Source: an uncultured Woeseiaceae bacterium
GTDB lineage: Bacteria; Pseudomonadota; Gammaproteobacteria; Steroidobacterales; Woeseiaceae
Reading direction: 5' to 3'
Length of the DNA: 64,000 nt
NCBI GenBank assembly: GCA_964607425.1
Contig: CAZSKQ010000001.1
Coordinates: forward strand, 27,784-91,783
Translations under genes and position numbers: made by a program
The notes under the pieces: model-generated
What the model saw: only the letters and a program-made list of their open reading frames with translations
What the model was told of the DNA's origin: nothing
Databases searched by the model: none
Part shown: positions 5,042 through 58,161 of the stretch, one piece after another
Position numbering within the stretch: the first letter of the stretch is position 1
Layout of the letters: each line of letters begins with the position of its first letter

Positions 5042-5046
5042 GACGA

Positions 5047-23696: not shown

Positions 23697-23712
23697 GAGC
23701 AGTGCGGCACGC

Positions 23713-24891: not shown

Positions 24892-24910
24892 GAGCGCGCC
24901 ATGCGCGCGA
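24888..24910 (+). repeat. REP-like palindromic element, forward copy
   Basis: GTAGGAGCGCGCCATGCGCGCGA. Contains the stop codon of the GT4 gene. Confidence 0.85.
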
Positions 24911-24932
24911 CAAAACACCCGCCACCCGTGGC

Positions 24933-24986
24933 ATCGCGCGCATGGCGCGCTCCTACAATGGCATCGCGCGCATGGCGCGCTCCTAC
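24933..24986 (-). repeat. Two tandem REP-like elements (30-bp period), inverted relative to 24888-24910
   Basis: ATCGCGCGCATGGCGCGCTCCTAC at 24933-24956 and 24963-24986. The second contains the stop codon of the 499-aa minus-strand gene. Confidence 0.85.
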
Positions 24987-38759: not shown

Positions 38760-39899
38760 TCAGCCCAGATCCCCGGCGCGAATGAGCCGCGCGGCCGACG
38801 CGATACTCTCGAATCGCCCGAGGCCCCGGCTCTCGACCATATTTTCCAGCACTGACAACGACTTCATCGACAGGTTCTTCGGATGCCCCATGACGTGGCA
38901 CAGGCGCATGGGCGGGTCGCGGCGAGGCAGGCGTGCGAGCCCGGCCGCTTTTGGATGGTCGACCGACAGCTCCGCGACCCGGCTCGCACCGAGCAGCCGG
39001 CGCAAAATTTCCGGTTTGCCGATGCGCTTGCCGGCACCGTCGCCGAAGACCCCGTCCTGCCGGCCGGTGAGCCGGTCGCGGACCCGGTCCCAGTAGTAGC
39101 CCAAGGGCAGTTTCTGCGGCGTCACCGGGATTTCCAGGAACCGGCCGGTGTCGTTCGGCGCCAGGGGCGAATCTTCGAAACGCCACCATTCCCGGCGCGG
39201 GGCTCGCCGGAAGTCGAAGCCTTTCTCGTCGTCCCTCAACGAAGCGCCCGGCACCACGCTGCTGTCGACGTCGATACCGCATTGCAGCAACGGGCCGGCA
39301 ATGGATGAAAACGGCTCGACACAGAAACCGCCCGCCCGGTATGACGTGGGCGCCGTACCGCAGGTCTCACCGAGGAGCCCGGCGTAGCGCCGCACGATGT
39401 CGGCCGCCTCGTCCGCGGTGAACTGCTCGAGGCGGTAGCGCGTGTCCGCGAACCTCCATCGGCCTTCCACGACCTCTGTATCCTCCCAGTGCGGGTGGAT
39501 GTGCAGGCCGATGTCGTGGCCCGCGTCCGCGATCCCGCGAATATGGCGGCGGACGCGATCGAGATCGGCGGACAGCCGCGGGCAGGTCGGCGCGAGCTGC
39601 CGCATCCGCCAGAGCATGCCGGCATCGATGTAGAACGTTATGCGATAGCCGTGCCGCCGGGCGCTCCTGAGCAATGCCTCGCAGGGCTCGAACAGGCACC
39701 TTTCGAGCGTTCCGCTCTTGTGAAAGAAAACCTCGTAGTCCTGGCTGAGGATCAGGATCGTATCGCTTGAGATCACCGGTTCATCCCGCGCTGCCTGTCG
39801 CCCGCGGCTGCAGGAGCAGCCAGCGGCGTGGGGCGTCAATGCTAACGCAATCGCGGCCGGATTCCCGAGGTGCCCGTCACGGATGGGGGTGTGAGGCAT
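38760..39899 (-). CDS. Polysaccharide deacetylase-like protein (CE4 superfamily, divergent)
   Basis: Track ORF 38760..40136 overlaps the kinase gene. Trimmed to ATG 39899 (GTG 39776 also possible). ILILSQDYEVFF, ITFYIDAGML, GHDIGLHIHPHWED suggest a NodB-like metal site. Confidence 0.5.
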   Translation of the reverse strand: MPHTPIRDGHLGNPAAIALALTPHAAGCSCSRGRQAARDEPVISSDTILILSQDYEVFFHKSGTLERCLFEPCEALLRSARRHGYRITFYIDAGMLWRMRQLAPTCPRLSADLDRVRRHIRGIADAGHDIGLHIHPHWEDTEVVEGRWRFADTRYRLEQFTADEAADIVRRYAGLLGETCGTAPTSYRAGGFCVEPFSSIAGPLLQCGIDVDSSVVPGASLRDDEKGFDFRRAPRREWWRFEDSPLAPNDTGRFLEIPVTPQKLPLGYYWDRVRDRLTGRQDGVFGDGAGKRIGKPEILRRLLGASRVAELSVDHPKAAGLARLPRRDPPMRLCHVMGHPKNLSMKSLSVLENMVESRGLGRFESIASAARLIRAGDLG

Positions 39900-39918
39900 A
39901 CCGGCCCTGCCGTGGGTA

Positions 39919-39943
39919 TTCGCGCGCGCTGCGCGCTCCTGCA
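39919..39943 (-). repeat. REP-like element, single copy
   Basis: TTCGCGCGCGCTGCGCGCTCCTGCA, between the kinase stop and the deacetylase-like gene. Confidence 0.75.
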
Positions 39944-39969
39944 ACCGGGGGCGGGGCTTCTCGCCCGAG

Positions 39970-42015
39970 TCAGCGCTCGATGGGAAGCCGTATCGAAAAG
40001 GTCGTGCCGACGCCCGGCTCCGAACCGATCTCGAGCTGCCCGCCCAGGGTGCGGACGTATTCGCGGGCCTGGTAGGCGCCGATGCCCATGGCTTCGGATC
40101 CCTTGGTGCTGTCAAAGGGGCGGAACAGGCGCTCACGGATGAATTCCGCGCTCATCCCGCAGCCGGTGTCGGCGATCGTCACGTGCGCGACGCCGTCCTC
40201 GGGCTCCAGCGCCACCGTTATCCTGCCGCCGCTGCCGGTCGCATCCTGGGCGTTGCGCACGAGATGCTCGAAAACGTTGGTAAGCCGGTCCGGGTCGGCG
40301 CTCACCGTTATCGAGCCGTCCGCGACCCGCAGTTCCGGCACCGGTTGCCGCTGGTTGCTGCGTTCGACCGCCTGCCGCAGCGCCTCCCCGAGGTCCACCG
40401 GTTCCCGCACCGGCTCCTTGGAGCGGCTTGCGAGCTGCTCCATCAGGCGCTTCATGCGGGTAACCGAGTGCGCGATAGTCGAGATCGCGTCGTCGACGAA
40501 CTTCGGATTCTGGCGGAAGCGCTCCGCGTTCCTCACCACCAGCGACTGCTGTGCGACCAGGTTGCTGAGGTCGTGCATCAAAAAAGCCGTCAGCCGGTTA
40601 TAGGTGCCGAATTGCCGGGTTTCCGCCAATCGCCGATCGGCCTCCGCCTGGCTGATGTGCGTGGCCACATGCCGGCCGACGGTCCGCAGCAGGTCGTGGT
40701 CTTCGAAGTTGAGCGCCGGCACGACGGCAGGCTTACGCAGCAGGATGAAGCCGGACAGCGTGTCCCCGAGCAAAAGCGGCACGATCAGCCACCAGTCGCG
40801 GGCCGCCGCCAGCCACGGCTCGAGCTGCAACCCGTCGTAGCGCATGGGCTCGCGCGCCATCTCCTCGATGTCGATCGTCCATTGCCGATCCTGCAGGAAG
40901 CTCACCAGGCTCGAGTTCTCGTCGATCGGCGACACCGTCGGGACCTCGCTGCGCCATGAGGCGACCGGCAGGTACGGCTCACCGTCGCCCTCTCGTACCC
41001 ACACGATACCCCCGGGGCTGTTGACGATCTGCGCGACCGCCCGGATCGAGGTCGCCGGCACGTTATCGAGCCCGGACTCGGTCAGCGTACTGATGAAACG
41101 CAGCCATTCCCGCCGGTAGTCGTACTTGTACTGGAAGAACGTTTTCATCAGGAACACGCGCACCCGCGCGCGCGTCGACGCCGACACGGTCAGGACCGAC
41201 ACCAGCGCAACCGCCGCCACGATGAAAACGACGCCCGCGACCTCGCTCCACGAACCGCCGTACGTGGTGACGTAGTAATGCCCCATCACCGTCAGCACGA
41301 CGTAGATGCCGATGGCGGCGAGCGCAAAGGAATAGAACACGATCCGGCGCGGAAACTGCACCTCGAAGGACAGGTGGAAGGTGCGCCAGATACCGACCGC
41401 GAGCGGAGCCACGAACATGCCGTTCACGAAGCCGCGCGCTGCCCAGTACTCGCGTTCGCTGGTAGCGCCCGCGATCACGAGAACAAAGGGGATGAGGTCG
41501 AAAACGAACATTCCGGCGACCGCTACGCAGAAATAGCCGATCCCCGAGCGCGCATCGACGGGCGAGTTGCGCCAGATCTGCTCGACGGCGGAGAGAATCA
41601 GGATGCAGAGCAGGAAGCCGCAGCCGACCATGGCAACCAGCGGCATCGGATCGTCCGAGCGCACGACGTACCAGCCGAACGGCAGTGCGGCGCAGGCCAG
41701 GACGATAATGCCGTAGCGCGAGGCGACGCGTTCGGCGAGCCGGGAAGGATCGATCGCGCGCAGGGTGGCGAGGAGCGCGATGAGCCAGGCAATGTAGCGC
41801 AGGATCTCGACCAGCACCGTGGTGAGGGTCGCGCCGATATAACCGAGGCTCTGCAACGCAAGCACCGCTCCCCAAAGAACGGCCGCACCCGACGCGATCG
41901 CGATCAGTGGCGACTGGGGGCTGTTCTTCCAGCGGCTGAGCAGCAACGCCGTCAGGATCGCGAAGAGGATCATCGCGATCGCGTAGCCGATGGCGGCTAT
42001 TTCGTTCGTTTGCAT
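39970..42015 (-). CDS. prsK: PrsK-like (PEP-CTERM system type) sensor histidine kinase
   Basis: 681 aa. About 8 N-terminal TM segments, GAF-like middle, H-box FLMHDLSNLVAQQS, N/G boxes HLVRNAQDA, DTGCGM, GIGAYQAR, GGQLEIGSEPGVGTTFSIRLP. Confidence 0.75.
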   Translation of the reverse strand: MQTNEIAAIGYAIAMILFAILTALLLSRWKNSPQSPLIAIASGAAVLWGAVLALQSLGYIGATLTTVLVEILRYIAWLIALLATLRAIDPSRLAERVASRYGIIVLACAALPFGWYVVRSDDPMPLVAMVGCGFLLCILILSAVEQIWRNSPVDARSGIGYFCVAVAGMFVFDLIPFVLVIAGATSEREYWAARGFVNGMFVAPLAVGIWRTFHLSFEVQFPRRIVFYSFALAAIGIYVVLTVMGHYYVTTYGGSWSEVAGVVFIVAAVALVSVLTVSASTRARVRVFLMKTFFQYKYDYRREWLRFISTLTESGLDNVPATSIRAVAQIVNSPGGIVWVREGDGEPYLPVASWRSEVPTVSPIDENSSLVSFLQDRQWTIDIEEMAREPMRYDGLQLEPWLAAARDWWLIVPLLLGDTLSGFILLRKPAVVPALNFEDHDLLRTVGRHVATHISQAEADRRLAETRQFGTYNRLTAFLMHDLSNLVAQQSLVVRNAERFRQNPKFVDDAISTIAHSVTRMKRLMEQLASRSKEPVREPVDLGEALRQAVERSNQRQPVPELRVADGSITVSADPDRLTNVFEHLVRNAQDATGSGGRITVALEPEDGVAHVTIADTGCGMSAEFIRERLFRPFDSTKGSEAMGIGAYQAREYVRTLGGQLEIGSEPGVGTTFSIRLPIER

Positions 42016-42035
42016 AACCGGTCAGCGCAAGCCCT

Positions 42036-42059
42036 GCAGGAGCGCGCATCGCGCGCGAT
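42036..42059 (+). repeat. REP-like element, forward
   Basis: GCAGGAGCGCGCATCGCGCGCGAT. Confidence 0.8.
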
Positions 42060-42114
42060 GCCACGGCGGTAGCGGGTACTCCAGCGGCCTGTGTGCTACC
42101 GCGACCGCCGTGGT

Positions 42115-42138
42115 ATCGCGCGCGGTGCGCGCTCCTAC
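42115..42138 (-). repeat. REP-like element, inverted partner
   Basis: ATCGCGCGCGGTGCGCGCTCCTAC. Contains the manB stop codon (TAG on the minus strand). Confidence 0.8.
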
Positions 42139-43631
42139 GGGGCCATCTCGTCCAGCAGCGCCAGGATCTCCCGCACTTTTTCCTGCATCAGTTCCTTGTT
42201 GCCGCGGCTTTCGACATTCAGCCGAATCACGGGCTCGGTGTTCGAGGCGCGCAGGTTGAAGCGCCACTCGTCGAATTCGAGGCTCACGCCGTCGGTCTCG
42301 TCGATGGAATTCGCGTCCGGCGCGTAGCGGTCGCGGATCGTCCGGATGGCGTGCTCCGAATCCGCCACCTTGCGGTTGATCTCGCCGCTCGCCGGGAACT
42401 TCTCCATCCGGTCGTCCACCAGCTCCGAAAGCTTGGCGCCGCGCGTCGAGACGAGCTGCGCGACCAGCAGCCACGGCAGCATGCCGCTGTCGGCGTAATA
42501 GAAATCGCGGAAGTAATGATGCGCGCTCATCTCGCCGCCGTAGAGCGCATCCTCGCGGCGCATGACTTCCTTCATGAACGAGTGACCCGATTTGCTCTGC
42601 ACGGGCCGACCACCGAACTCCTCCGCGATCTCGATCGTGTTCCAGGTGAGCCGCGGGTCGTACACGATCGCCGGCCGCCCGTCACTGGTCGCCTGCTGCC
42701 CGCCCCCGGCCGCCGGCTGCCCGTCGCTTGTCGTCGGCTGCCGGTCGCCGTAGGAGCGCGCATTACGCGCGATGCCACCATTGCCAACCGCAGCATCGCG
42801 CGCCATGCGCGCTCCTGCGGCTTCGAGCTGCGATTGCGCGAGCAGGCCGACGATGTAATAGCCCTCGATGAAGCGGCCATTTTCGTCGAAGAAAAAGCAG
42901 CGATCGAAATCCCCGTCCCACGCAATCCCGAAATCGGCTTTGCTTTCCGCAATCGCGTCGATCGTCGGCTTGCGATTCCCGGCCAGCATCGGATTCGGCA
43001 CGCCGTTCGGGAAATGCCCGTCGGGCGCGTGGTACACCTTGACGAATTCGAACGGCAGGTGCGGCTCCAGCCTGTCGAGTGTCAGGCCGGCGCCGCCGTT
43101 GCCGGCATTCGCGACGATCCTGAGCTTCGACAGGCTCGGGACGTCGATGAAAGACAAAAGCCGGTCGATGTAGCGGTCATTGATATCGATCGTCTTGCGC
43201 TCACCGGCCACCGCCGCCGCCCGCCGCCGGTCGCCCTGCGCCAGCTCGCGGATCTCCTTCAAGCCCGTGTCGCCGCTGATCGGCCGCGCCTCCCGGCGCA
43301 CGAGCTTGAGGCCGTTGTAGTCGGCGGGGTTGTGGCTGGCGGTCACCATGATGCCGCCGTCGGCCTGCAGCTCACCGGTGGCGAAGTACACCATCTCGGT
43401 GCCGCCGAGCCCGATGTCGAGCACGTCGGCGCCCGCTTCGCGCACCCCGGCGGACACCGCGTCCGCGAACTCCGTGCTGGTCAGGCGGATATCGCGCCCA
43501 AGGACGATCGTCTTGGCGTCCAGGTATTCAGCCGCCGCATTGCCGATGCGATAGGCAATATCGACGTTGAGCTCGTTCGGAATCTGCCCACGGATGTCGT
43601 AGGCCTTGAAACATTCAATATTCACTGGCAT
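42135..43631 (-). CDS. manB: Phosphomannomutase/phosphoglucomutase (CpsG/ManB type) carrying an about 42-codon REP-derived in-frame insertion
   Basis: 498 aa. CFKAYDIRG, TASHNPADYNGLK, FDGDFDRC, GEMSAHHYFRDF, TEPVIRLNVE. Colinear with E. coli CpsG as I recall it (about 456 aa), except for extra residues between GLLAQS and IVYDPRL. Confidence 0.9.
   Translation of the reverse strand: MPVNIECFKAYDIRGQIPNELNVDIAYRIGNAAAEYLDAKTIVLGRDIRLTSTEFADAVSAGVREAGADVLDIGLGGTEMVYFATGELQADGGIMVTASHNPADYNGLKLVRREARPISGDTGLKEIRELAQGDRRRAAAVAGERKTIDINDRYIDRLLSFIDVPSLSKLRIVANAGNGGAGLTLDRLEPHLPFEFVKVYHAPDGHFPNGVPNPMLAGNRKPTIDAIAESKADFGIAWDGDFDRCFFFDENGRFIEGYYIVGLLAQSQLEAAGARMARDAAVGNGGIARNARSYGDRQPTTSDGQPAAGGGQQATSDGRPAIVYDPRLTWNTIEIAEEFGGRPVQSKSGHSFMKEVMRREDALYGGEMSAHHYFRDFYYADSGMLPWLLVAQLVSTRGAKLSELVDDRMEKFPASGEINRKVADSEHAIRTIRDRYAPDANSIDETDGVSLEFDEWRFNLRASNTEPVIRLNVESRGNKELMQEKVREILALLDEMAP
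42750..42818. repeat. Inverted REP doublet inside the manB coding sequence
   Basis: GTAGGAGCGCGCATTACGCGCGAT (42750-42773) and ATCGCGCGCCATGCGCGCTCCTGC (42795-42818). Read through in frame as ...AAGARMARDAAVGNGGIARNARSYGD... Confidence 0.85.
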
Positions 43632-43697
43632 GGGCGGAACGGTCCTGGATCGCGCAAGCTGAAACCGATGCCCCGGGATTATGGCAGAAACAGCCCT

Positions 43698-43721
43698 GCA
43701 GGAGCGCGCACAGCGCGCGAA
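43698..43721 (+). repeat. REP-like element, forward
   Basis: GCAGGAGCGCGCACAGCGCGCGAA. Confidence 0.8.
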
Positions 43722-43761
43722 GCCCCGGCCACGGGCGAAGCGATGGCCGATGTTGGTGAGT

Positions 43762-43786
43762 ACCGCGCGCGATACGCCCTCCTAAG
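43762..43786 (-). repeat. Degenerate REP-like element, inverted partner
   Basis: ACCGCGCGCGATACGCCCTCCTAAG. Contains the manC stop codon. Confidence 0.55.
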
Positions 43787-45224
43787 TACTCGTTCCCTGC
43801 CGCCCGTACTTGTCCTCGAGCCGCACGATGTCGTCCTCGCCGAGGTAGTCGCCGCACTGGACCTCGATGATGTGCACGGGTTCCTCGAAGGGATTCGCGA
43901 TACGGTGGACCGTGCCGACCGGGATGTAGGTCGCTTCGTTCACGCCGAGGTCGAACTCCTCGTCGTCCCGCGTGATGCGTGCCTTGCCGCGCACGACCAC
44001 CCAATGCTCGGCGCGGTGCGCGTGCTTCTGCAGCGAAAGCACGGCTCCCGGGTTCACGATCAGGCGCTTCACCTGGAAACCCTCGGCACTGTCGATGGAA
44101 TCGTAGCTACCCCACGGCCGGAACACCTGGCGGTGCAGCTTCGCTTCTTCGCGGCCCTGGCGCTTCAGCTCGTCGACGAGCTGCTTCACGTCCTGGGCGT
44201 GATCCTTGCTCACGACCAGCACAGCGTCCTTGTCTTCGACTACCACCACGTTTTCCAGCCCGACGGCCGCGACAAGCCTGCTCCGGCCGCGAAGATAGCT
44301 CTCCCGGCAATCGTGCAGGATGACGTCGCCGATCACGCTGTTGCCGTCCGCGTCCCGCGGGCTGACGTCATGCAGCGCACTCCAGGACCCGACGTCGCTC
44401 CAGCCGGCCGTGAGCGGCACCATAGCCGCACGCCCGGTTTTCTCCATGACGGCGTAGTCGATCGAGTCGGCGGGGCTGGAACGGAACGCGTCCGGATCGG
44501 GTCGCAGGAAATCGTCGCCGGCGGCGGCGCCTTCGATGCTTTTCCGGCAGGCTTCGACGATCGCCGGTGCAAACGCAGCGAGCTCATCCAGGTAGGTGTC
44601 GGCCCGGAAGAGGAAGATACCGCTGTTCCAGAAGAAGCGATTGGTTTCGAGCAGCCTGGCCGCCGTCTGCTCGTCCGGCTTTTCCACGAAGGATGCGATC
44701 GGCGCCGCCTTCCCCTCCTGCACGTCGGCTTCGATGTAGCCGTAGCCGGTGTGCGCGCAGGTCGGCACGATGCCGAAGGTGACGAGCCGCCCGGCCGCGG
44801 CGGCAGCCTCGCCGGCCGCCAGGGCGGCGACAAAGGCGTCATTGTCCTCGATGACGTGGTCGGCCGGCATGATGAGTAACAGCGGTGACTCCGGGCCGTC
44901 GTTGCCCCGAGCCCCCTGCTCCGCGACCAGGGCCGCGAGCGCGGCCGCCGGAGCGGTATTCCGGCCTTCCGGCTCGAGCACGATCGTCGCCGGCACCCCT
45001 ATCTCCCGGAGCTGCCCGGCGACCAGGAAACGGTGCGCTTCGTTGCAGACCACGAGCGTGCCGGCGGTTACGTTCGCCTTGCCGGCGAGCCTCTGCGCGG
45101 TTTCCTGCAGCATTGTCCGCTCGCCGGTGAGCGGCAGGAGCTGCTTCGGGTACATCGATCGGGACGCGGGCCAGAGACGGGTGCCGGAACCGCCCGAAAG
45201 AATCACAGGTTGGATCGCCGTCAT
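43782..45224 (-). CDS. manC: Mannose-1-phosphate guanylyltransferase / mannose-6-phosphate isomerase (bifunctional type II PMI-GMP)
   Basis: Trimmed to MTAIQPVILSGGSGTRLWP (ATG 45224). C-terminal cupin HRAEHWVVV.G.A. 480 aa. Confidence 0.9.
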   Translation of the reverse strand: MTAIQPVILSGGSGTRLWPASRSMYPKQLLPLTGERTMLQETAQRLAGKANVTAGTLVVCNEAHRFLVAGQLREIGVPATIVLEPEGRNTAPAAALAALVAEQGARGNDGPESPLLLIMPADHVIEDNDAFVAALAAGEAAAAAGRLVTFGIVPTCAHTGYGYIEADVQEGKAAPIASFVEKPDEQTAARLLETNRFFWNSGIFLFRADTYLDELAAFAPAIVEACRKSIEGAAAGDDFLRPDPDAFRSSPADSIDYAVMEKTGRAAMVPLTAGWSDVGSWSALHDVSPRDADGNSVIGDVILHDCRESYLRGRSRLVAAVGLENVVVVEDKDAVLVVSKDHAQDVKQLVDELKRQGREEAKLHRQVFRPWGSYDSIDSAEGFQVKRLIVNPGAVLSLQKHAHRAEHWVVVRGKARITRDDEEFDLGVNEATYIPVGTVHRIANPFEEPVHIIEVQCGDYLGEDDIVRLEDKYGRQGTST

Positions 45225-45314
45225 AGCTTTGGACTCTAGACCAAGTGGCAGGCTTGAACAATCGAACGGCCCGGGGAGCACCCCGGGGGCTATCCTATCG
45301 GCTTGCCGCTTACC

Positions 45315-45406
45315 GGTCGCCCGCATGGCGGGCTCCTACGGCGTAGCGGTCGCCCGCATGGCGGGCTCCTACGGCGTAGCGGTCGCCCGCATGGCGGGCT
45401 CCTACG
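45315..45406 (-). repeat. Three tandem copies (33-bp period) of a REP variant with GCCCGC/GCGGGC stem
   Basis: GGTCGCCCGCATGGCGGGCTCCTACGGCGTAGC x3 (third copy truncated), between the manC start and the ugd stop. Confidence 0.85.
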
Positions 45407-46926: not shown

Positions 46927-48021
46927 ATGAGCAAAACGACCGTACACCTCATCGCCGCCGCCCGGCCGAATTTCATGAAGGTCGCGCCGCTCTACCATGC
47001 GTTGCGCGCGACCGACTGGTGCGAACCCATGATCGTCCATACGGGCCAGCACTACGACGCCAACATGTCGGACGATTTTTTCCGCGACCTCGGCCTGCCT
47101 GCCCCCGCGCACCACCTGGGCATCGGCAGCGGCTCGCACGCGGAGCAGACAGGCGGCGTCATGATCGCTTACGAAAAGGTGTGCGTCGCCGCCCGTCCCG
47201 ACTGGATCGTGGTCGTGGGAGACGTGAACTCGACGGCCGCATGCGCGATGGTCGGTACGAAGCTCTGGATCCCGGTCGTGCACCTGGAAGCCGGACTCCG
47301 CAGCGGCGACCGGCGAATGCCGGAAGAGATCAATCGCCTGGTCACGGACGCTATCGCGGACGTGCTGTGGACGCCCTCGCCCGACGCGAACGAGAACCTG
47401 CTGCGGGAGGGTGTCGCGGAAGCCAAGGTCGAGCTGATCGGCAACATCATGATCGATTCGTTCGAGCTGTTGCGGAAAAAGATCGAGGCGTCGGATTCCC
47501 GCGAGCGCCTGGGGTTGGACGGCGGGGAGTATGCACTGCTCACCCTCCACCGGCCGTCAAACGTGGATCGCGCGGAGACGCTGGCGGCTATCGTCGACGC
47601 ACTGGAAAAGATCGCGGGCGATCTCAGGCTCGTTTTTGTTTCGCATCCGCGTACGATGAAGAACCTGAAGCGCTTCGGCTTGTCCGACCGGCTGGCGACG
47701 CTCGCCAACGTGGATTTGCTGGAGCCTTTGCCCTACATCGACTTCATGAACGTTATGACAGGCGCGAAGCTCGCGATTACGGATTCTGGCGGCCTGCAGG
47801 AAGAAACCACCTACCTCGGCATTCCGTGCCTGACGATGCGCGAGAACACGGAGCGGCCCGTGACGGTGACGCAAGGCACCAACGAGCTGGTAGGCGCCGG
47901 CGAGCTGGCGGAGAGCGTCGCCCGGGTACTGAGCGGCGACTGGAAAAAAGGCTCCGTTCCCGCCCTCTGGGACGGCCACACCGCCGAGCGGGCCGTCCAA
48001 TCCCTGAAATCCCGCCTGTAG
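46927..48021 (+). CDS. wecB: UDP-N-acetylglucosamine 2-epimerase (non-hydrolysing)
   Basis: 364 aa. ARPNFMKVAPL, HTGQHYD, VVGDVNST, HLEAGLRS, PEEINR, DSGGLQEE. Stop TAG inside a REP. Confidence 0.9.
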   Translation: MSKTTVHLIAAARPNFMKVAPLYHALRATDWCEPMIVHTGQHYDANMSDDFFRDLGLPAPAHHLGIGSGSHAEQTGGVMIAYEKVCVAARPDWIVVVGDVNSTAACAMVGTKLWIPVVHLEAGLRSGDRRMPEEINRLVTDAIADVLWTPSPDANENLLREGVAEAKVELIGNIMIDSFELLRKKIEASDSRERLGLDGGEYALLTLHRPSNVDRAETLAAIVDALEKIAGDLRLVFVSHPRTMKNLKRFGLSDRLATLANVDLLEPLPYIDFMNVMTGAKLAITDSGGLQEETTYLGIPCLTMRENTERPVTVTQGTNELVGAGELAESVARVLSGDWKKGSVPALWDGHTAERAVQSLKSRL

Positions 48022-48039
48022 GCGCGCATTGCGCGCGAT
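48018..48039 (+). repeat. REP-like element, forward (2-nt shorter variant)
   Basis: GTAGGCGCGCATTGCGCGCGAT. Confidence 0.7.
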
Positions 48040-48120: not shown

Positions 48121-50090
48121 CCCCGCCGCACGGTGATATCGATGACCTTGTCGTCGCCCGCGTCGTGACCTTGCCCGTGCACCCTCGCCCAGACAAGGTC
48201 GTCGATGCCGTTCAGCGGCTCGTACCCGCCCACCGCACGCTTCAATACCTCCCGCGCCTGGTACCGGTCGAGATGCGTGGACGAAATGCGCAGTTCCTCG
48301 ATCAACGGCAGCAGCTCGTCATAGGGCATGTAATCCTCGTTCGCGCGCATGATCCGCGGATGGCTGGTGCCGGAGACGTCGGTGCCGATCAGCAATTCCT
48401 CGAACAGCTTTTCGGCCGGCCGTAACCCCGTGTATTTGATGGCGATGTCGCCGTCCGGGTTGGTCTCGTCGCGAACGGTAAGGCCCATCAGGTTGATCAT
48501 CCGGCGCGCCAGGTCGCGGATACGAACGGGCTGGCCCATGTCGAGCACGAACACGTCGCCGCCCTCGGCCATGGCGCCGGCCTGGATGACGAGCTGTGCG
48601 GCCTCGGGAATCGTCATGAAGTAGCGGATGATCTCGCGGTGCGTGACGGTAACGGGCCCACCCTTGCGGATCTGCTCCCGGAACAGCGGCACGACCGACC
48701 CGGAGGACGCCAGCACGTTACCGAACCGCACCATGCTGAACCTGACCGACGGATGCTCGTCCTGCAGCCCCTGCAGGATGAGCTCCGCGAAGCGCTTCGT
48801 CGCGCCCATGACGCTGGTGGGGCTGACGGCCTTGTCCGTGGAGATGAGAACGAAAGTATCGACCCCCGCCTCGATCGCGGCCTTGGCCATGTGCAGCGTG
48901 CCGAACACGTTGTTGTGCACGCCTTCGAGCAGGTTGTGTTCCACGAGGGGTACATGCTTGTAGGCAGCCGCGTGGTAGACGGTGTTGATCTGGTACACCT
49001 CGAGCACTTCGCGGGCCCGGTCGATGTGGTGCACCGAGCCGATGAGCGCGATGATCTCGCAGTCGATTTCGAGTGACTCGGTGAGCCCGCGCAGCTCCTT
49101 GTCGATGTTGTAGAGCGCGATTTCCGAGAGCTCGTAGAGAACCAGGGTTTTCGGATGGAGCTGGACGATCTGGCGGCAGAGCTCCGAGCCGATGGAACCG
49201 CCGGCGCCGGTGACCATCACCGTCTTGCCGGAGATCGAGGCACGCAGGAGCTTTGGATCGGGCGGTACCGAATCGCGGCCGAGAAGGTCTTCGACGTCAA
49301 CGTCGCGAATATCGTCGACCCGCGCTTTACCCGTTACGAGATCGCTGATCTCGGGGATTGTCTGCACGTGCACGGGGAAATCCGACAGGCGTTCGAGGAT
49401 CATGCGGCGCGTGCGCCGGGAAGCACTGGGCATCGCGAGCAGCACCCGCGTGGCGCCCGTGCTCTCGATCAGCTTCTCGATGTGCATGGGCGAATACACT
49501 TCGATGCCGTTGACACGCTTGCCATGCAGCAGGAGGTTATCGTCGACGATCGCCACGGGGAGGAAATCGGCACCGCCCCTGAGCGAACCGGCGAGGCGCG
49601 CCCCACCCTCGCCCGCGCCGTAGATGATGACGGGTTCGCGATCGAGGTTTCGCCGGTTCAAAAACACCCGGGCGGAAAAGCGGCAACCGACCAGGCAGAT
49701 GAGCGCGAGCGCGCAGAAGATGATCGACCAGCGAAACGGTGCCGCCACGAGCTCCCCCGCGTAGACAAGGAAGCCCACGAGAAGCGTAATGGCAAGCGTG
49801 GTCTTGGTGCCGGCGACGAAGAGGTCGGCACCCATGTAGCGGATAATGGAGCGGTACAAACCTTCGTGCCAGGCAATGGGGATCGTCACCACGACAGTGA
49901 CCACGGTCAGGAGGATCATGTCCGTCGCCGCCAGTGCAGCGGTACCGGTCGCCAGCCAGGCGGCTCCCCAGACACAGGTGCAGACGCCGACGATATCTGA
50001 CAGGATCATCGCGCTTTGCTTGTGGACCCGCGGCAGGTTCAGGACAAGATCTCGAAACTCCTGAATGCGATTTGGCCGTACCTGTGCCAT
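48117..50090 (-). CDS. Membrane-anchored nucleotide-sugar 4,6-dehydratase/epimerase (CapD/WbpM/PglF family)
   Basis: 657 aa. 4 N-terminal TM segments, then VMVTGAGGSIGSEL, YHAAAYKHVP, STDKAV.P.SVMGATKR. Confidence 0.9.
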   Translation of the reverse strand: MAQVRPNRIQEFRDLVLNLPRVHKQSAMILSDIVGVCTCVWGAAWLATGTAALAATDMILLTVVTVVVTIPIAWHEGLYRSIIRYMGADLFVAGTKTTLAITLLVGFLVYAGELVAAPFRWSIIFCALALICLVGCRFSARVFLNRRNLDREPVIIYGAGEGGARLAGSLRGGADFLPVAIVDDNLLLHGKRVNGIEVYSPMHIEKLIESTGATRVLLAMPSASRRTRRMILERLSDFPVHVQTIPEISDLVTGKARVDDIRDVDVEDLLGRDSVPPDPKLLRASISGKTVMVTGAGGSIGSELCRQIVQLHPKTLVLYELSEIALYNIDKELRGLTESLEIDCEIIALIGSVHHIDRAREVLEVYQINTVYHAAAYKHVPLVEHNLLEGVHNNVFGTLHMAKAAIEAGVDTFVLISTDKAVSPTSVMGATKRFAELILQGLQDEHPSVRFSMVRFGNVLASSGSVVPLFREQIRKGGPVTVTHREIIRYFMTIPEAAQLVIQAGAMAEGGDVFVLDMGQPVRIRDLARRMINLMGLTVRDETNPDGDIAIKYTGLRPAEKLFEELLIGTDVSGTSHPRIMRANEDYMPYDELLPLIEELRISSTHLDRYQAREVLKRAVGGYEPLNGIDDLVWARVHGQGHDAGDDKVIDITVRRG

Positions 50091-50204
50091 TCAAACTCCC
50101 TTAACTGATGCCAAATTGATTATAGTTTCTGCCAGGGCGCGACGTTCCACATGGTGCGCCTTCTGGGGGCCGGGCGGAATTTACCATATTCTGAATGGCC
50201 TGCG

Positions 50205-51254
50205 TCAACTTTTGCTGAAATTTCCGGGCCTTGGTCGGTCACCGTGGAAATCACGTGAACCGGATTTGTACTTCCAGGCCAGCCAAAGCAGCGGTCCGTA
50301 ACCGATGGCCAATCCCAGCTGCCACTGTAAAACGGACAATGCAACCAGCACCGCGACAGGCAATAGCCACAGCATATTCACCGCTCCAACGGCCATGCTC
50401 ACGCGGGCGTGACTGCGATGAATGCGAGCCGCATGTTGATAGGCATGGCTGCAATGAGCCTCGTGCAAGCGCTCCCCCCGCAGCAGCCTGTGCGCGAGCG
50501 TGACCCCGGAATCGGTGATGAAGACGCCGAGCAGTATCATCCATGCCCAGAAGGCATGGGCACCCAGTAAGGCCGCCTCGAAGCAGAAGATCGCGACGAC
50601 GAAACCCAAAAAGCCGCTGCCGGAATCGCCCATGAAGATTCGTGCGGGCGGGTAATTCCAGCAAAGAAAACCGGCGACTGATGCGGCCAGCAGCATGGCG
50701 GACATCCAGAGGTGGCCGGAAGGCTCGGCTATGTAGAACACCAGCGCGCCGCCGACACTGACGGTAATCGCTTCAATGCTTGCGATACCGTCAATGCCAT
50801 CCATGAAGTTGTAGAGATTGATCAGCCAGACCACGGACAGGACCGCGACAATCAGCAATCCCCATTGTGTTCCGGCCACCCCGGCAGACTCACTCGCCGG
50901 TACGTAGAGCAGCGCCACGGCAGACGCTGCTGCCAGGAAATGGACCAGCAGGCGAAGTGACGCCGCTACATGCCGATGATCATCGACAAAGCCTACCAGG
51001 GCCACCAGGCCTCCGCCTCCGCAGATCGCCCATAACAATGGCGGCCGCACGCCGCCGAGCAGGCTCAATGCCGCCACCATACTGATGAACGTCAGCACTA
51101 TCGCGAATCCGCCGCCGCGGGGAGTAGCGAAGTCGTGCGAACTCCGTTCGTTCGGCACGTCGACAACCTGGCGTGCCAGCGCATACCGTCTCATAAGCCA
51201 CGTAAAGCCGAAAGAAACGAAAATCGCCGTCGCGACGAGCCAGGGGAAGCTCAT
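50205..51254 (-). CDS. Polyprenyl-phosphate N-acetylhexosamine-1-phosphate transferase (WecA/WbpL, MraY-like family)
   Basis: 349 aa, about 10 TM segments. NLYNFMDGIDG, FMGDSGSGFLG. Confidence 0.85.
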   Translation of the reverse strand: MSFPWLVATAIFVSFGFTWLMRRYALARQVVDVPNERSSHDFATPRGGGFAIVLTFISMVAALSLLGGVRPPLLWAICGGGGLVALVGFVDDHRHVAASLRLLVHFLAAASAVALLYVPASESAGVAGTQWGLLIVAVLSVVWLINLYNFMDGIDGIASIEAITVSVGGALVFYIAEPSGHLWMSAMLLAASVAGFLCWNYPPARIFMGDSGSGFLGFVVAIFCFEAALLGAHAFWAWMILLGVFITDSGVTLAHRLLRGERLHEAHCSHAYQHAARIHRSHARVSMAVGAVNMLWLLPVAVLVALSVLQWQLGLAIGYGPLLWLAWKYKSGSRDFHGDRPRPGNFSKS

Positions 51255-52207
51255 CAGCGCATGGCTTCCATGAAATGCCGGGCTGTCTTGTTCAGTGCCG
51301 TTTGCATGTCAGTCACTGGCGACCATCCGAGGACACGACCCGTCTTGCTGATGTCTACCTGGAGGGAACTCACCAGGGGCTCCACCGCACGGTGCTTACC
51401 CAATAATGCGGCGCCGGCACGCATGAGCGCACCCGGAACCGGCGCGATCTTCGCCGGCTTGTGTAACGCGACGCCAATACGGCGCACCAGTTCGCTGGTG
51501 GATACATCATCGTCGTCGGACACTGTAAAGACCTCATTCGCGGCCGCGGGATTTACGGCGCAAGTAGCGATCAAGTCGATCAGGTTGTCGATGGCGACCA
51601 GGCTGCGCCTGTTTTTTGCAGAACCGAGCGGGACAGGCCAACCATTATAAATCCAGCGCATCAGCGCAAGAAAGTTGGCCTTTACACCGGGTCCGTAAAC
51701 AAGCGGCGGGCGAATCACGACCCATGCCATGTCGCTGTCTTGCGACAGCTCCTTCAGCCCGATCTCCGCCTCATGTTTCGATCTGCCGTATGCATCGGCG
51801 GGGGCCGGCACGTCGTCGGGCAAAAAGGGCCTTCCGGGTGCCGTAGACTCGCCGTTTACCTTGATCGAGCTCAGGAAAAGAAAACGTTTGACGCCGGCGC
51901 CCAGTGCCTGCCGGGCCAGGTTGAGCGTACCCCCGACATTGACTGCCTGAAACCTGGCCTCGGCATCTTCCTTGCCCCTCACATGTACGTGTGCAGCCGT
52001 GTGAATAACCAGCTCGATGCCGTTTAACGTCTCCGCCCAGGCGGTCGCCTGGTCGATGTCACCGGTTTCGACATACGTCACCCCGGCAACAGGATTCTCC
52101 TGCTTCCGTCGGCTAGCCGCGACCACCTGGTATCGTTCATCGTGGCCAAAGCGTTCAACGGCCGCCCGTCCGATAAATCCCGAGGCACCGGTGATGAGAA
52201 TCTTCAT
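51254..52207 (-). CDS. NAD-dependent nucleotide-sugar epimerase/dehydratase (SDR)
   Basis: 317 aa. MKILITGASGFIGR, YGRSK catalytic pair. Stop overlaps the next start by 1 nt (TGATG). Confidence 0.85.
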   Translation of the reverse strand: MKILITGASGFIGRAAVERFGHDERYQVVAASRRKQENPVAGVTYVETGDIDQATAWAETLNGIELVIHTAAHVHVRGKEDAEARFQAVNVGGTLNLARQALGAGVKRFLFLSSIKVNGESTAPGRPFLPDDVPAPADAYGRSKHEAEIGLKELSQDSDMAWVVIRPPLVYGPGVKANFLALMRWIYNGWPVPLGSAKNRRSLVAIDNLIDLIATCAVNPAAANEVFTVSDDDDVSTSELVRRIGVALHKPAKIAPVPGALMRAGAALLGKHRAVEPLVSSLQVDISKTGRVLGWSPVTDMQTALNKTARHFMEAMR

Positions 52208-52253
52208 TACGTTTTACTTGGCCGAGACGAAATGGGACGCGCAGGTGTGCCGG

Positions 52254-52529
52254 CTATCGACGGCAGCTATCGCCAGTCAGTCGTACTGGCGGCCTGGCGT
52301 TCCCGGCTGGACAGGCAGATCTCCAGTCCGGGACGTAGTTCAGCAAGCAGGCCGATTGCACCTCGCGTTTACGTCGCTTTCTCATTACCTGCAGCGCTTT
52401 TTCTTCTCCGTCACTGACATGGCAGTGCTCTCCTGGCTTTATCTGCGCCGCAGGGATCTGCCCTGACCGCACAATCGCCCGGGAGTATGTCACACGCCGC
52501 CAGTGCTGCGCCAGATTCAGCCCGTTCAC
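52254..52529 (-). pseudogene. Possible excisionase/AlpA-type HTH small ORF or its remnant
   Basis: In the about 600-bp gap, the minus-strand frame reads VNGLNLAQHWRRVTYSRAIVRSGQIPAAQIKPGEHCHVSDGEEKALQ. This resembles the HTH_17 pattern ...vsrstiYRlirsGelPavkiG.rwri...dleafl. GTG start, low-complexity tail. Confidence 0.3.
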
Positions 52530-52807
52530 GCCTGCTGCCTTGCAACAGGCGTGCGCCCACGCGAGTCGACGATTTTTCCCGTTATTTTGCTTCCGGCTCC
52601 CCTGCACCGCTGAAGCTCGCTCCGGCAACCCACGCCGCGGACTTTCTGCTGTCCTGAAATGGAAGAGAGCTTTGTGCTCCATGCCCGGCAAACCGTGCAT
52701 GTGGACACGTCTCACGGCCCGATGCAGAATGTCTTCGCTGTAACAGCTTACCAATCGAAAGCGGCCGATTTCGTGCTGCTCCCCGTGCCTGACCAATAGG
52801 ATCGTCG

Positions 52808-53656
52808 ATGGCCTTCTCTGTCTTATTGTCCGTGTACGCCAAGGAACGGCCTGGCAACCTGGCACGCTGCCTGCAGAGTCTCTGCGACCAAAGCTTGCCT
52901 GCAGACGAAGTCGTCCTCGTGGAAGATGGCCGGATCACCGACGCCTTGCGTGACACTATCGAGTCGTTCCGCACCCGGATTCCGCTCAAATCTGTAAGGC
53001 TGGGTTCGAACGTCGGCCTGGCTGCGGCCCTGAACGCCGGACTTGACGCCAGCAGCAACGAGCTGATAGCCAGAATGGATACCGACGACGAGGCGTTGCC
53101 GCACCGTTTCGAGAAGCAGATTGACTATCTGACCCAGCACCGGGAAACGTCGATCGTTGGATCGTGGGCTGTTGACGTCGATGAAGAGTATCAACCTCTT
53201 TGGGAACGGCGTGTTCCGATACAGCATGAAGATATTCTTCGGCTTATATGGACATGCCCGTTCATTCATCCGAGCGTAATGTATCGGCGGAACCGGATCC
53301 TGCAGCTGGGCGGTTACGACAGGACGCTTTTTCGCTCGGAAGATTATGATCTCTGGCTGCGTGCCGCCCTGGCCGGACTGCGGTTTCACAACATTCCGGA
53401 GCCGCTGATCCACTATATGTACCGCGCACAGCGCAGCTGGCGTGATTCCATTCGACAAGGGATCTGCCGAACGACAACCGGCTGGAGGGGCTGCCGTAAA
53501 CTCAATCTGGGCACGAAGGCGCTGCTCGGGACCACCGGCTACTTCATCAATGGCCTGGTGCCTCCGGCGTTTCAACGGACATCCAAGTTGTTGTTTCGAC
53601 GCCTGGATCCGCGGTTGAGGCTCTACCGACGGAACAGGCCGGGTTCTCCCGCGTAG
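52808..53656 (+). CDS. Glycosyltransferase family 2
   Basis: 282 aa. FSVLLSVY, EVVLVEDG, ARMDTDDEALPHRF (DxD). The only plus-strand gene in this cluster. Confidence 0.85.
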   Translation: MAFSVLLSVYAKERPGNLARCLQSLCDQSLPADEVVLVEDGRITDALRDTIESFRTRIPLKSVRLGSNVGLAAALNAGLDASSNELIARMDTDDEALPHRFEKQIDYLTQHRETSIVGSWAVDVDEEYQPLWERRVPIQHEDILRLIWTCPFIHPSVMYRRNRILQLGGYDRTLFRSEDYDLWLRAALAGLRFHNIPEPLIHYMYRAQRSWRDSIRQGICRTTTGWRGCRKLNLGTKALLGTTGYFINGLVPPAFQRTSKLLFRRLDPRLRLYRRNRPGSPA

Positions 53657-53731
53657 GCGGCTGGCTTGACCTGGGCTGGTTACGGTCTCCAGGAGCAGCG
53701 GTAGACTGCAATCCGGGGCGAGGCATACAAC

Positions 53732-54451
53732 TTACAGGCAAGCAATATTCCTGGTAGCCGCACCCTCAAAATCAAATCCGAAATATTCAATATCGGCGCG
53801 GAACATTTCTGCCACCACCCCGGCTGTCTCGTCGGTATACATGCTCCTGTAGTCATATTGCTTCACGTTATTCCTCTTTTTGACTGAAACGCGCCTGCCG
53901 AAGTAGTCGGAGATGTCACGCTCGATCGATTCAAATCGCAGGCAATCGCACACGACCGTCCCGGCCGAATCGGTAAGCCACTCCAGCTGATCGAACCATG
54001 ATGTCATCGGCCCCATCCACGGCTGCCCCGGATGGTCCGGAATTTCGAAGACTCGGTGATCCCTGACGTAATCGGAAAAGCTGACTGCCTGGATGTAACT
54101 ACGGCGCGGATCCTTACTCGACCAGGTTACCGAGTTTCTCCTGGCATACAGGTATCTTGATGCAGTCCGACTCCACGGATTCCGCACGATTGAGAAGAAG
54201 ATCAGGGTATTCGGTAATTTGTCCGCAATGTCGCGATAGCGAAAGTGGTAGTACGGACTGCTGATGGAAACAAAGGAACCTACGGCATGCCTTGCCGCTG
54301 AACCGCCATTCCGGGGTATATGTATAAAGTGATGTGTTGGGCGGATCCGGCTCTTTTTCCGCCCTTGAATCAACTCTCTCGCTCTGGCGCGACTGCGGCC
54401 CAAAACGCCGGTTACTACGCGGAGGGTATTCCTTCCATTTCGTCCTGGCAT
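53732..54451 (-). CDS. Sulfotransferase family 2-like protein
   Basis: Trimmed to MPGRNGRN (ATG 54451, downstream of the previous stop). FIHIPRNGGSA and VRNPWSRTASRYLY match the PAPS-binding motifs of Sulfotransfer_2 proteins. Confidence 0.6.
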   Translation of the reverse strand: MPGRNGRNTLRVVTGVLGRSRARARELIQGRKKSRIRPTHHFIHIPRNGGSAARHAVGSFVSISSPYYHFRYRDIADKLPNTLIFFSIVRNPWSRTASRYLYARRNSVTWSSKDPRRSYIQAVSFSDYVRDHRVFEIPDHPGQPWMGPMTSWFDQLEWLTDSAGTVVCDCLRFESIERDISDYFGRRVSVKKRNNVKQYDYRSMYTDETAGVVAEMFRADIEYFGFDFEGAATRNIACL

Positions 54452-54482
54452 AAGCCGTTCCTCATCTATATAAACCGAGCTA

Positions 54483-55568
54483 CTACATAAACAGAACGCT
54501 CCGGTACGGCCCGAGGTCTGCGGAGAAGGCAATGAAAAGCACTGTGCAATAGACCAACACGGCTGAATAGGCGAGCACCCTCTCTTCCCGCGGAGGAAAC
54601 AGTAACAGCACCGACGGAAGAATCACCGCCGCTGCCGAAATGCAGAATAGCTCGCGTATTCGGCTGTTTACCGTCGTATAGTCGATAAAAGCGATCATCG
54701 CAGCGCTTCCATAAACATACATCGGTATCAAATACCTGTTGTAGGGATTAACGGCGACCAGCCTGCGCTGCATAATGATGAGGAAGGACGACATCGCCAG
54801 GTGGAGCATCATCGTCCCGCCAAACAAGGCAATACCTTCCCCGAACCTGTCATCGAGGTACTTGACGAGCCGTGCCGTATCCCCCAGCCCGAGCAGCGAC
54901 GCTACGCTCGTCGCAACCAACGTACCGATCCCTCCAAGCGTGGCCAGTACCGTCGCTACGGACAAGGCTATAGTCATCAACAAACGGCTCGATACGTACC
55001 CGACCCAATACAGCGGCAATGCAGCAATGGCCGCTGTGTGGAATAGTGCGGCAAACACAATACCGACTACGAATTTGACCAGGTTTCGTTGTGCCACGAA
55101 TAATACACAGTACAGGACGATTCCTGACGCCAGCGCGTTCCGCGCCTGCGATAATTCCTTGAAAAAGTACTCGTTGGCAACATAGATGAGAAGCGAAAGA
55201 ACGGCGTACGGCGAAAGTTTCCGGAAGGCAGCGAACTTGATGCTGAGCGAAAGCAAGGCAACAGCAAAGACAAAGAACGGAAATGACCCAACGAGATTCT
55301 TCTCTGCAATGACAAGGAGCGCAAAGCCTGACTCGACCGGGGTAGCGGCTGAAATGCTATAGGTAAATAATCCGAGCTGAGACAGATTGTCGATATCGTT
55401 GTAGATTCGCAAATAGCTGAAATAGTCGGTCGAGGCGTATCGCAGTCCGACGACGCATACGAACATCAGGAACAGGACGGTATAGACCGCCCCGGCTGGC
55501 GCGCCCTTTTGCAAAGTAGCCAGCGACAGTAACGCCACCACGCCAAAAACCAGCCAGTACTCTATCAC
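54483..55568 (-). CDS. EpsG-family membrane protein (putative Wzy-type polymerase)
   Basis: 361 aa, about 10 TM segments. N-terminal DYFSYLRIYNDI motif typical of EpsG-like polymerases. GTG start overlapping the upstream stop. Confidence 0.65.
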   Translation of the reverse strand: MIEYWLVFGVVALLSLATLQKGAPAGAVYTVLFLMFVCVVGLRYASTDYFSYLRIYNDIDNLSQLGLFTYSISAATPVESGFALLVIAEKNLVGSFPFFVFAVALLSLSIKFAAFRKLSPYAVLSLLIYVANEYFFKELSQARNALASGIVLYCVLFVAQRNLVKFVVGIVFAALFHTAAIAALPLYWVGYVSSRLLMTIALSVATVLATLGGIGTLVATSVASLLGLGDTARLVKYLDDRFGEGIALFGGTMMLHLAMSSFLIIMQRRLVAVNPYNRYLIPMYVYGSAAMIAFIDYTTVNSRIRELFCISAAAVILPSVLLLFPPREERVLAYSAVLVYCTVLFIAFSADLGPYRSVLFM

Positions 55569-56641
55569 TGGAAAAGAACCTGTTCGTACCTGCGAATGAT
55601 GTCATCGGAGTTGAAGCGCCGGGATGTCTGCCTTATTTCCTCTTCATTCCAGTCTCGCGCCAAGGAATGCAGGATCATCGATTCCAGGTGTGCTTCATCG
55701 GGATACCGCGCGAGATAACCATTGATCCCTTCCTGGATGATCTCCGCGGGCCCGCTCTGGCAGTCAAAAGCAACTACGGGGGTGCCCAACGCAATTGATT
55801 CCAGCAACACGTTGGGGAAGCCCTCGAAGTGTGAAGTGAGCAGTGTCAGGCGCGCCCCAAGGAAATACCTTGCTACCTCCTGGCGAGCACCTTTGAAATC
55901 CACCCGGTCGGCAATGGAAAGATCAGCCGCCAGTTGCTGCAGCTCCGACCTCAGGACGCCTTCTCCCACGATCGTGAGCCTGAGGCCCGGCACCTTCGCC
56001 GAGATTCGCTGGAAAACCCGGATCGCCGTTGAAAAGTTCTTCTGCTGCTCCAGTTTCCCTATGCATAAAATATAATTTTCCCTGGGATAACGCGAGCGAC
56101 ACGCTTGCTCCGCATGTTTTTCGATGCGTTCACTTACCGGATTCGGTATCGTCGTGATCCGGCCAGGAGTTACCTTCAGGTACGCACCAAGATCCTCTGC
56201 CATCGCCTGTGACTGCGCGATGAATACATCCGACAACGGATAGAACCACCTGATCAGGTGCTTTGCAGCGAAACCGTGCCACACACCGCGTTTGCTCTTC
56301 TCCGCCTGCGACAGGAATATGATGTTGCGCGAGACGATTTTATATTTCATCCGTGTCAGCAGTCTTATGACTACCAGCACAACAGAGATCTGGCGGTTAA
56401 AGGACAGAATCAAGTCCGGCCTGCTCTTACCGATATACCGGAACAGCGCCCAGAAGGCATTTCGTGCATGCTCGCACCGCAGGTCACGCACAAGAATGCC
56501 CGGCTCCAGGCGGCCCCTGAGATCGTCGGCCGACGTCTTGAGTAATAATAGCTCAATGTTCTTGCCCTTCCGCGCCAGACCGTTTGCAAGAGTCACGCAC
56601 ACATTTTCCGCACCTCCCGTCCGAAGGGTATTTATGACCAT
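55565..56641 (-). CDS. Glycosyltransferase family 4
   Basis: Trimmed to MVINTLRTGGAENV (ATG 56641). C-terminal SHFEGFPNVLLESIALGTPVVAFD. Confidence 0.8.
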   Translation of the reverse strand: MVINTLRTGGAENVCVTLANGLARKGKNIELLLLKTSADDLRGRLEPGILVRDLRCEHARNAFWALFRYIGKSRPDLILSFNRQISVVLVVIRLLTRMKYKIVSRNIIFLSQAEKSKRGVWHGFAAKHLIRWFYPLSDVFIAQSQAMAEDLGAYLKVTPGRITTIPNPVSERIEKHAEQACRSRYPRENYILCIGKLEQQKNFSTAIRVFQRISAKVPGLRLTIVGEGVLRSELQQLAADLSIADRVDFKGARQEVARYFLGARLTLLTSHFEGFPNVLLESIALGTPVVAFDCQSGPAEIIQEGINGYLARYPDEAHLESMILHSLARDWNEEEIRQTSRRFNSDDIIRRYEQVLFQ

Positions 56642-56652
56642 CACGAGGTCCG

Positions 56653-58158: not shown

Positions 58159-58161
58159 GTT

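Follow-up and report, generated by a model that had tools for sequence, protein, structure and literature searches.

We analyzed a 64,000-nucleotide stretch of DNA from an uncultured Woeseiaceae bacterium (contig CAZSKQ010000001.1 of assembly GCA_964607425.1, positions 27,784 to 91,783; hereafter the window). The window has a G+C content of 63.5% and holds a large XrtA/PEP-CTERM exopolysaccharide (EPS) locus that includes prsK, export, chain-length, and tyrosine-kinase genes, manC, manB, ugd, and wecB. The analysis concerns manB, the coding sequence of which contains an inverted pair of repetitive extragenic palindromic (REP) elements and an adjoining minisatellite, all within one intact open reading frame (ORF). 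The gene and the parts of its insert are located as follows.

42135..43631, minus strand: manB, encoding a CpsG/XanA-type phosphomannomutase/phosphoglucomutase (PMM/PGM), ORF intact, 498 aa (ORF, NCBIfam, Pfam, PDB, and fold match)
42672..42821, minus strand: segment without counterpart in the 452-aa orthologues, codons 271-320 (protein alignment, DNA comparison, and split PDB alignment)
42793..42821, minus strand: REP arm 1, sense with the gene, GCAG tag, core 42795-42815, encoding AGARMARD (motif with 0 mismatches; inverted-repeat arm)
42776..42792, minus strand: spacer of 17 nt between the two 29-nt arms (inverted-repeat analysis)
42747..42775, plus strand: REP arm 2, antisense to the gene, GTAG tag on the plus strand, core 42753-42773, encoding IARNARSYG (motif with 0 mismatches; inverted-repeat arm)
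42668..42746, minus strand: coding minisatellite with a 21-nt period and 3.8 copies, approximately DRQPTTS-DGQPAAG-GGQQATS-DGRPA (Tandem Repeats Finder score 88)

The top NCBIfam model for the ManB protein is phosphomannomutase CpsG (NF011943), matched in two stretches with 592 bits. This score misses the curated whole-protein cut-off of 801 bits, and on sequence scores ManB is better termed CpsG/XanA-like than a CpsG member by NCBI's rule. All four Pfam domains of the family architecture (PF02878, PF02879, PF02880, and PF00408, PGM_PMM_I-IV) match the protein. The nearest solved relative is the phosphoglucomutase of Xanthomonas citri (5BMN/5BMP), with a sequence match to 5BMN at an E-value of 5e-172 and a fold match to 5BMN/5BMP at a target-normalised TM-score of 0.90-0.91 with 53% identity in the structural alignment; the two proteins have the same four-domain fold and all four active-site loops. 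The four catalytic motifs of ManB, TASHNP at residue 97, DGDFDR at 239, GEMSAHH at 366, and RASNTEP at 461, are all intact and are invariant or nearly so across the family alignment. We take them to be the phosphoserine loop, the metal-binding loop, the sugar-binding loop, and the phosphate-binding loop, respectively. Pairwise ratios of nonsynonymous to synonymous substitution rates (dN/dS) between manB and seven orthologues range from 0.12 to 0.20.

Alignments of ManB with its orthologues and with PDB entries break at residues 269/321, where 50 codons (271-320) replace the four codons (QGRG) of the nearest orthologue, so that ManB is longer by 46 residues net. The loop that bears the insert has 51 residues (query 270-320), compared to six in the X. 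citri enzyme. An earlier note on this DNA had put the excess at about 42 residues, which is too low given the 498 residues of ManB and the 452 of nearly all orthologues, whereas the translation that it gave for the insert, AAGARMARDAAVGNGGIARNARSYGD, is correct. This translation is in frame and free of stops, and the frame runs as LEA-AGARMARDAAVGNGGIARNARSYG-DRQPTTSDGQPAAGGGQQATSDGRP-AIVYDPRL. The two REP arms are 90% complementary to one another, and each also pairs with an arm of an intergenic REP doublet at 42031-42143 (87-90% complementary over 31 nt). Their core-to-core distance of 21 nt is the same as that in the intergenic doublet 24891-24953. The manB doublet folds as one long hairpin (DNA fold -38.6 kcal/mol, z -5.7), and the RNA fold of a 181-nt segment containing it has a z of -3.8. 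The minisatellite adjoins the doublet on its downstream side in the sense of the gene. Direct repeats had been described at this place before, and they do exist, although as a tandem array of 3.8 copies of 21 nt rather than as two copies of 24 nt.

The REP motif GGAGCGCGCANNRCGCGCGAT has 13 matches in the window, compared to 0.41 expected from shuffles. Its core, GGAGCGCGC-N3-GCGCGCGA, is a short GC-rich imperfect palindrome of the GTAG type, and the intergenic copies read GTAGGAGCGCGC, with the GTAG tag unpaired at one end; one tagged copy in its context is ctGTAGGAGCGCGCcatGCGCGCGAc. Eleven of the 13 matches lie outside the ORFs accepted as genes on the basis of codon-position G+C, and only the manB pair is intragenic. 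With two copies of 0 mismatches inside a 498-aa ORF, the central observation of the earlier note is borne out: a phosphomannomutase gene contains, in frame and read through, an inverted pair of REPs that belong to the genome's own family. Almost every gene in the manC-manB-prsK stretch is flanked by REPs, and two groups lie directly beside manB.

42031..42143, no strand assigned: intergenic REP doublet with 45-nt arms in the manB-prsK gap (motif and inverted repeat)
43701..43782, no strand assigned: intergenic REP pair in the manC-manB gap (motif and gene positions)

Three of the 11 REP matches outside manB supply or abut stop codons, with zero spacer to the coding sequence. The GTAG tag of the REP at 42115-42138 lies at 42135-42138 (plus-strand positions, minus-strand reading) and includes the manB stop codon TAG, and the stop codon TAG likewise lies within an intergenic GTAG tag in wecB (stop 48019-48021; tag 48019-48022) and in the glycosyltransferase gene 23512-24891 (tag 24889-24892). 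At 24888-24986, three REPs, one forward and two reverse, occupy the entire gap between this glycosyltransferase gene and a convergent beta-helix/NosD-like gene. A second REP subtype is distinguished by compensatory stem changes (GGAGCCCGC...GCGGGCGA) and forms a perfect tandem array of 33 nt x 2.8 at 45314-45406, between ugd and manC, with one REP copy per unit (GTAGGAGCCCGCCATGCGGGCGAC); the 100% identity of these copies suggests a very recent amplification. In its longest version (start 45326), the manC ORF extends into this array, and its family match starts at residue 38; the true manC start is probably near 45224. A similar case is the longest ORF at 38760-40136, of 458 aa: it overlaps both the REP at 39919-39939 and the stop codon of prsK, and from residue 80 on NCBIfam gives it no match; its true start is probably well downstream, which would make this REP intergenic.

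An AlphaFold model of ManB built on 120 sequences has a mean predicted local distance difference test score (pLDDT) of 84.8 and a predicted template modelling score (pTM) of 0.85. In the model, a helix that normally ends near residue 269 spans residues 257-282, its extension passing through the first REP arm. Only part of the insert, residues 284-313, is modelled with a pLDDT below 50, and a strand at residues 321-324 takes up the fold again. The insert is predicted to lengthen the helix and then to form a disordered loop, with the four-domain fold and the catalytic loops unaffected. The loop had been described in the earlier note as inter-domain, which does not agree with the Pfam matches: P0002, an orthologue without the insert, has domain III at residues 257-367, but in the window ManB this domain is matched only from profile position 22. 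Since the domain is split after approximately profile position 21, these sequence matches place the insert inside domain III, in the link between its first helix and its first strand.

The closest named homologues of ManB come from metagenome-assembled genomes of Woeseiaceae, and 105 of the 120 best homologues listed have a length of 452 aa, 46 residues less than the window protein. In a neighbour-joining tree of ManB proteins calculated with the loop columns removed, the window protein groups with seven uninserted sequences of 450-453 aa (P0002-P0008, loop LEAQGxGA) with 93.5% bootstrap support. The closest orthologues are 88-89% identical in aligned columns and have no insert. This group joins a second group (P0009, P0011, P0013, P0018, and P0022; 100% support) and P0010, the whole clade having 80% support. 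All six sequences of the latter set are longer at this site by 5-19 residues through in-frame inserts, and the outgroups have the short loop. An insertion confined to one strain, as the earlier note had considered, is not what we find: sister lineages with REPs have shorter REP-derived inserts at this very site, and the closest orthologues have none.

The sister inserts differ in their content. The locus L081 (P0009) has one REP with the same junction and the same orientation as in the window (GAGGCT|GCAGGAGCGCGC and GAGGCT|GCAGGAGCGCGCACTGCGCGCAATGG, both as read in L081), and this REP has the minority GCAG tag in common with arm 1 of the window. At 5817-5900 of L081, the single intragenic REP is followed by a local duplication of its own (CACCGGCAAT twice, encoding GNAPA...GNAPA), and repeats may have grown beside a REP more than once, not in the window alone. 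At the corresponding junction, L082 (P0013) reads GCAGGGGCGCGC, which is likely a REP relic, as judged from 11 of 12 positions that match the REP, six of these being common to the empty site. L086 (P0010) has a REP variant with a GCCCGC stem in the loop, in antisense orientation, and 24 nt of it (the 22-nt core and the next two bases) are identical to intergenic copies at positions 54 and 146 of the same contig. The L086 contig (1-5455; a 5.4-kb metagenome contig) is unusually dense in REPs: it holds 14 intergenic copies of the GCCCGC and related subtypes, distributed over all gaps around manB and prsK. In L087, L088, and L089, the insert sequences have decayed past recognition. Orthologous sites are variously empty, singly occupied, doubly occupied, or occupied by relics, and because the REPs of L081 and L086 differ in subtype and orientation, there were at least two independent REP entries into the loop. 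The window and L081 copies may have either a shared ancestry, with loss in P0002-P0008, or an origin in separate insertions at a preferred nucleotide. By analogy with the tetranucleotide of IS200/IS605 elements, the GCAG of the empty site was considered as a REP target, but its register is off by 1 nt between the empty and the filled site, and we regard the idea as speculation only.

Searches of metagenome contigs and GTDB relatives listed mostly distant matches (53-71% identity), which were used only as a background for loop length. Among these matches (GTDB representatives and metagenomes), the loop has its standard length in 149 of 163 loci and is longer by 2-15 residues in a few unrelated lineages, such as Colwellia-like genomes. 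This variation in unrelated lineages indicates that the loop generally tolerates insertions, and the placing of the insert in a loop that tolerates changes in length is supported. The manB-REP junction TCGCARYTNGARGCNGCAGGAGCGCGC, searched as an exact pattern in JGI metagenome contigs, had no match.

The insert itself was followed in sequencing reads. Of the sampled words, 98% were present in four runs, which come from four different samples of a single soil-metagenome study. Each of the four runs contains a single unitig of 383-700 nt that spans at least 42641-43023, including the array, the doublet, and both flanks, with 0 differences and at a depth of approximately 18-23, which is the depth of the flanking unitigs. 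Word depth peaks to several thousand in 42734-42795, and the only peaks are the REP cores, as expected for a repeat. Landfill and solid-waste metagenomes (X5 and X7) contain contigs with identical flanks and the identical REP doublet. A permuted allele in X5/X7 has 17 differences, all within 42684-42731, and is of equal length with its repeat units permuted: DRQPTAGGGKQATSDGQAAVGDGRPA. In a short allele, 42677-42745 is skipped and CTC stands instead (...ARSYGGGPAIVYD), so that 66 nt or 22 residues are missing while the REP side is kept. Further contigs in these metagenomes represent 461-aa-like and 452-aa-like forms. The reconstructed alleles (permuted, 66-nt-shorter, and 461-like) are all in frame, and the length difference of the 452-like form is a multiple of 3. 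The array is unstable, and the allele series supports an order of events in which the REP would have come first and the array later.

On this evidence, we consider it probable that the translated GTAG-tagged REP doublet and the coding minisatellite are a near-neutral passenger in a loop of a working PMM/PGM enzyme. A doublet of the genome's own REP family, similar to the REP doublets that form hairpins (REPINs), resides in the manB coding sequence and would be translated. By analogy, its REP may have been mobilised by a transposase of the REP-associated tyrosine transposase (RAYT) type. The ribosome would read both arms as approximately 26 residues (AAGARMARDAAVGNGGIARNARSYG), and the 21-nt minisatellite beside the doublet would contribute approximately 20 more. 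In a loop that tolerates insertions, GC-rich palindromes that are in frame and free of stops would not be purged. The same loop has received REP DNA at least twice in the Woeseiaceae-like clade, and slippage or recombination in the adjacent array would keep altering the alleles. The intact motifs, the low dN/dS, and the in-frame alleles point to an enzyme that is probably still active, as the earlier note had thought conceivable, and the insert is presumably neutral.

Several observations count against this reading or limit it. The tag and stems of the window and L081 REPs are identical at 18 of 18 positions, with a synonymous divergence (dS) of approximately 0.75 between the genes. Such identity is not what the simple neutral decay of a single ancient insertion would predict; it fits a recent arrival or a maintenance of the REP consensus better than the passive decay of an old insert. 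The GC-rich mRNA hairpin, with arms of approximately 29 bp, could slow translation or affect mRNA decay, and strict neutrality is an assumption. A weak regular expression for RAYT motifs, run over the six frames of the window, hit only a false positive in an adenylation domain, and family scans of approximately 30 window ORFs, covering only part of the window, found no Y1 transposase. The sole RNA run for the organism holds just 6-10% of the sampled words.

A more active role of the REPs is possible, if doubtful. In the Woeseiaceae-like clade, the domain III loop between helix 1 and strand 1 would then be a preferred landing site, its REP copies would be active and kept to the consensus through speciation by RAYT or gene conversion, and they would seed the fast-evolving coding minisatellite. 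If this is true, REP dynamics would continuously create length variants of a housekeeping enzyme.

Retention of the REP or of the loop for a function appears unlikely. The function could lie in mRNA stability or translation of the manC-manB operon, in an active REP member that a RAYT or gene conversion keeps to the consensus, or in diversifying selection on loop length. Such a role would account for the 18/18 identity, since a rough neutral expectation is approximately 53% per site, as well as for the common junction and minority GCAG tag of the window and L081 copies, the re-use of the loop by a REP that differs in subtype and orientation, and the fast turnover of the adjacent array. It would also suit the REPs around nearly all genes of manC-manB-prsK, and REP arrays have been noted beside EPS genes in Thauera (Di Nocera et al., 2013, BMC Genomics 14:522, PMC3733652). 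However, the same facts are explained, with no function involved, if the insertions are recent and independent and the site is permissive or preferred. Seven close orthologues have no insert, and the inserts of L087, L088, and L089 have decayed past recognition. Moreover, a scan of 41900-43900 found neither an intrinsic terminator (U-tract) nor a sigma-70 promoter, and Rfam gave no family match, the two long hairpins yielding only sub-threshold chance matches to miRNA precursor models.

That manB is a young pseudogene, just inactivated by the insertion and still intact in appearance, is decidedly improbable, although the earlier note had allowed for a freshly inactivated gene. Its 46 residues are the longest insert at this site among the orthologues examined, the orthologues closest to it are uninserted, and neither REP arm deviates from the consensus, as would be expected of a recent arrival. 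Nevertheless, neither a stop nor a frameshift interrupts the reading frame, and the catalytic motifs are preserved. In addition, the array has diversified into at least three alleles across metagenomes, the reconstructed ones all in frame, and in six sister sequences this loop contains other inserts that likewise keep the frame. The low dN/dS also argues against a pseudogene, though most of this divergence may predate the insertion. By its place in the sequence the loop is peripheral, and it is predicted to be disordered. Finally, an artefact of assembly or binning (a REP-mediated chimera or a collapsed repeat), which the earlier note had named as a way for its claim to fail, is very unlikely and may be set aside: REPs are repeated, assembly graphs break at them, and word depth rises at their cores, but unitigs from four soil samples cross the insert without difference at flank depth, and alleles that are near-identical or variant occur on the same flanks in X5 and X7, which belong to two other studies.

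Two other parts of the window are of note for their gene content. At 191-13530, a hybrid polyketide synthase (PKS)-aminotransferase gene (ketosynthase, acyltransferase, acyl carrier protein [ACP], and class III aminotransferase; 1705 aa) and two genes for AMP-binding/ACP proteins adjoin a heparinase II/III-like lyase gene at the border of the XrtA/PEP-CTERM EPS locus, and the polysaccharide may be acylated or amino-modified. At 50001-64000, the G+C content falls to 54-59% from 64-68% over a second block of polysaccharide genes, which encode GT4 enzymes, an EpsG-family polymerase, a Wzz/GNVR chain-length protein, an epimerase, and an ATP-grasp protein. The window has no REP motif matches past 48117, and the block at 50001-64000 resembles a cassette, laterally acquired or variable, into which the REP family has yet to spread.

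Di Nocera et al. (2013, PMC3733652) sorted prokaryotic REPs into the GTAG and CGTC superfamilies and reported that most are located downstream of ORFs, often no more than 20 bp from the 3' end. The earlier note had called the manB pair unusual on the ground that REPs are extragenic by definition; this ground does not hold, as in-frame intragenic REPs of the GTAG and CGTC types were catalogued in several species. In genes for known proteins, more than half of such in-frame REPs are dimers or groups that encode 20-30 aa, with clusters encoding 43-82 aa, and these inserts have been proposed to be neutral because they are in loops or linkers (PMC3733652). The REPs of the window resemble the catalogued ones in being short GC-rich GTAG/GYAG stem-loops that are mostly intergenic, near or overlapping stop codons, with a minority in frame. 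They differ in their host, a CpsG/XanA-type PMM/PGM gene of a Woeseiaceae-like soil bacterium, in the series of alleles that re-use one loop, and in the minisatellite. A supplementary table of the same study also contains a phosphomannomutase, RC0657 of Rickettsia conorii, with a single CGTC-1 unit at residues 146-153, which is another element at another site than the manB REP.

The classic example of in-frame insertion is that of the Rickettsia palindromic elements (RPEs; Ogata et al., 2000, Science 290:347, as cited in PMC3733652 and PMC3184786). As with RPE-like insertions, the manB repeat is read in frame in a gene that is intact and conserved. However, RPEs are AT-rich elements of approximately 105-146 nt from obligate intracellular bacteria, whereas manB carries a pair of approximately 25-nt GC-rich GTAG REPs (75 nt with the spacer) in a free-living high-GC bacterium. 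The manB doublet is similar to REPINs (Bertels and Rainey, 2011, PMC3116915) in its inverted REPs at a fixed spacing, its single hairpin, its within-genome population, and a consensus that extends across related species, but REPINs were described as extragenic, whereas the manB doublet lies in translated sequence. The manB case is thus a further instance of documented intragenic REPs. What it adds is modestly new, namely, the allele series, the repeated entry of REPs, of two subtypes, into one loop, and the fast-changing coding minisatellite beside a REP.

The manB case leaves the knowledge of REPs and of the enzyme unchanged. It provides a clean natural example of mobile palindromic DNA turned coding, in which, across several populations, one loop of a well-studied enzyme is found with no, one, two, or decayed REPs and with a growing minisatellite alongside, and it can serve to mark a site in PMM/PGM enzymes that is permissive for insertion. 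It also holds a caution for annotators, as REPs can sit in real genes and the REP tags here supply stop codons. In addition, it offers a system in which to ask whether REP/REPIN insertion has a target preference.

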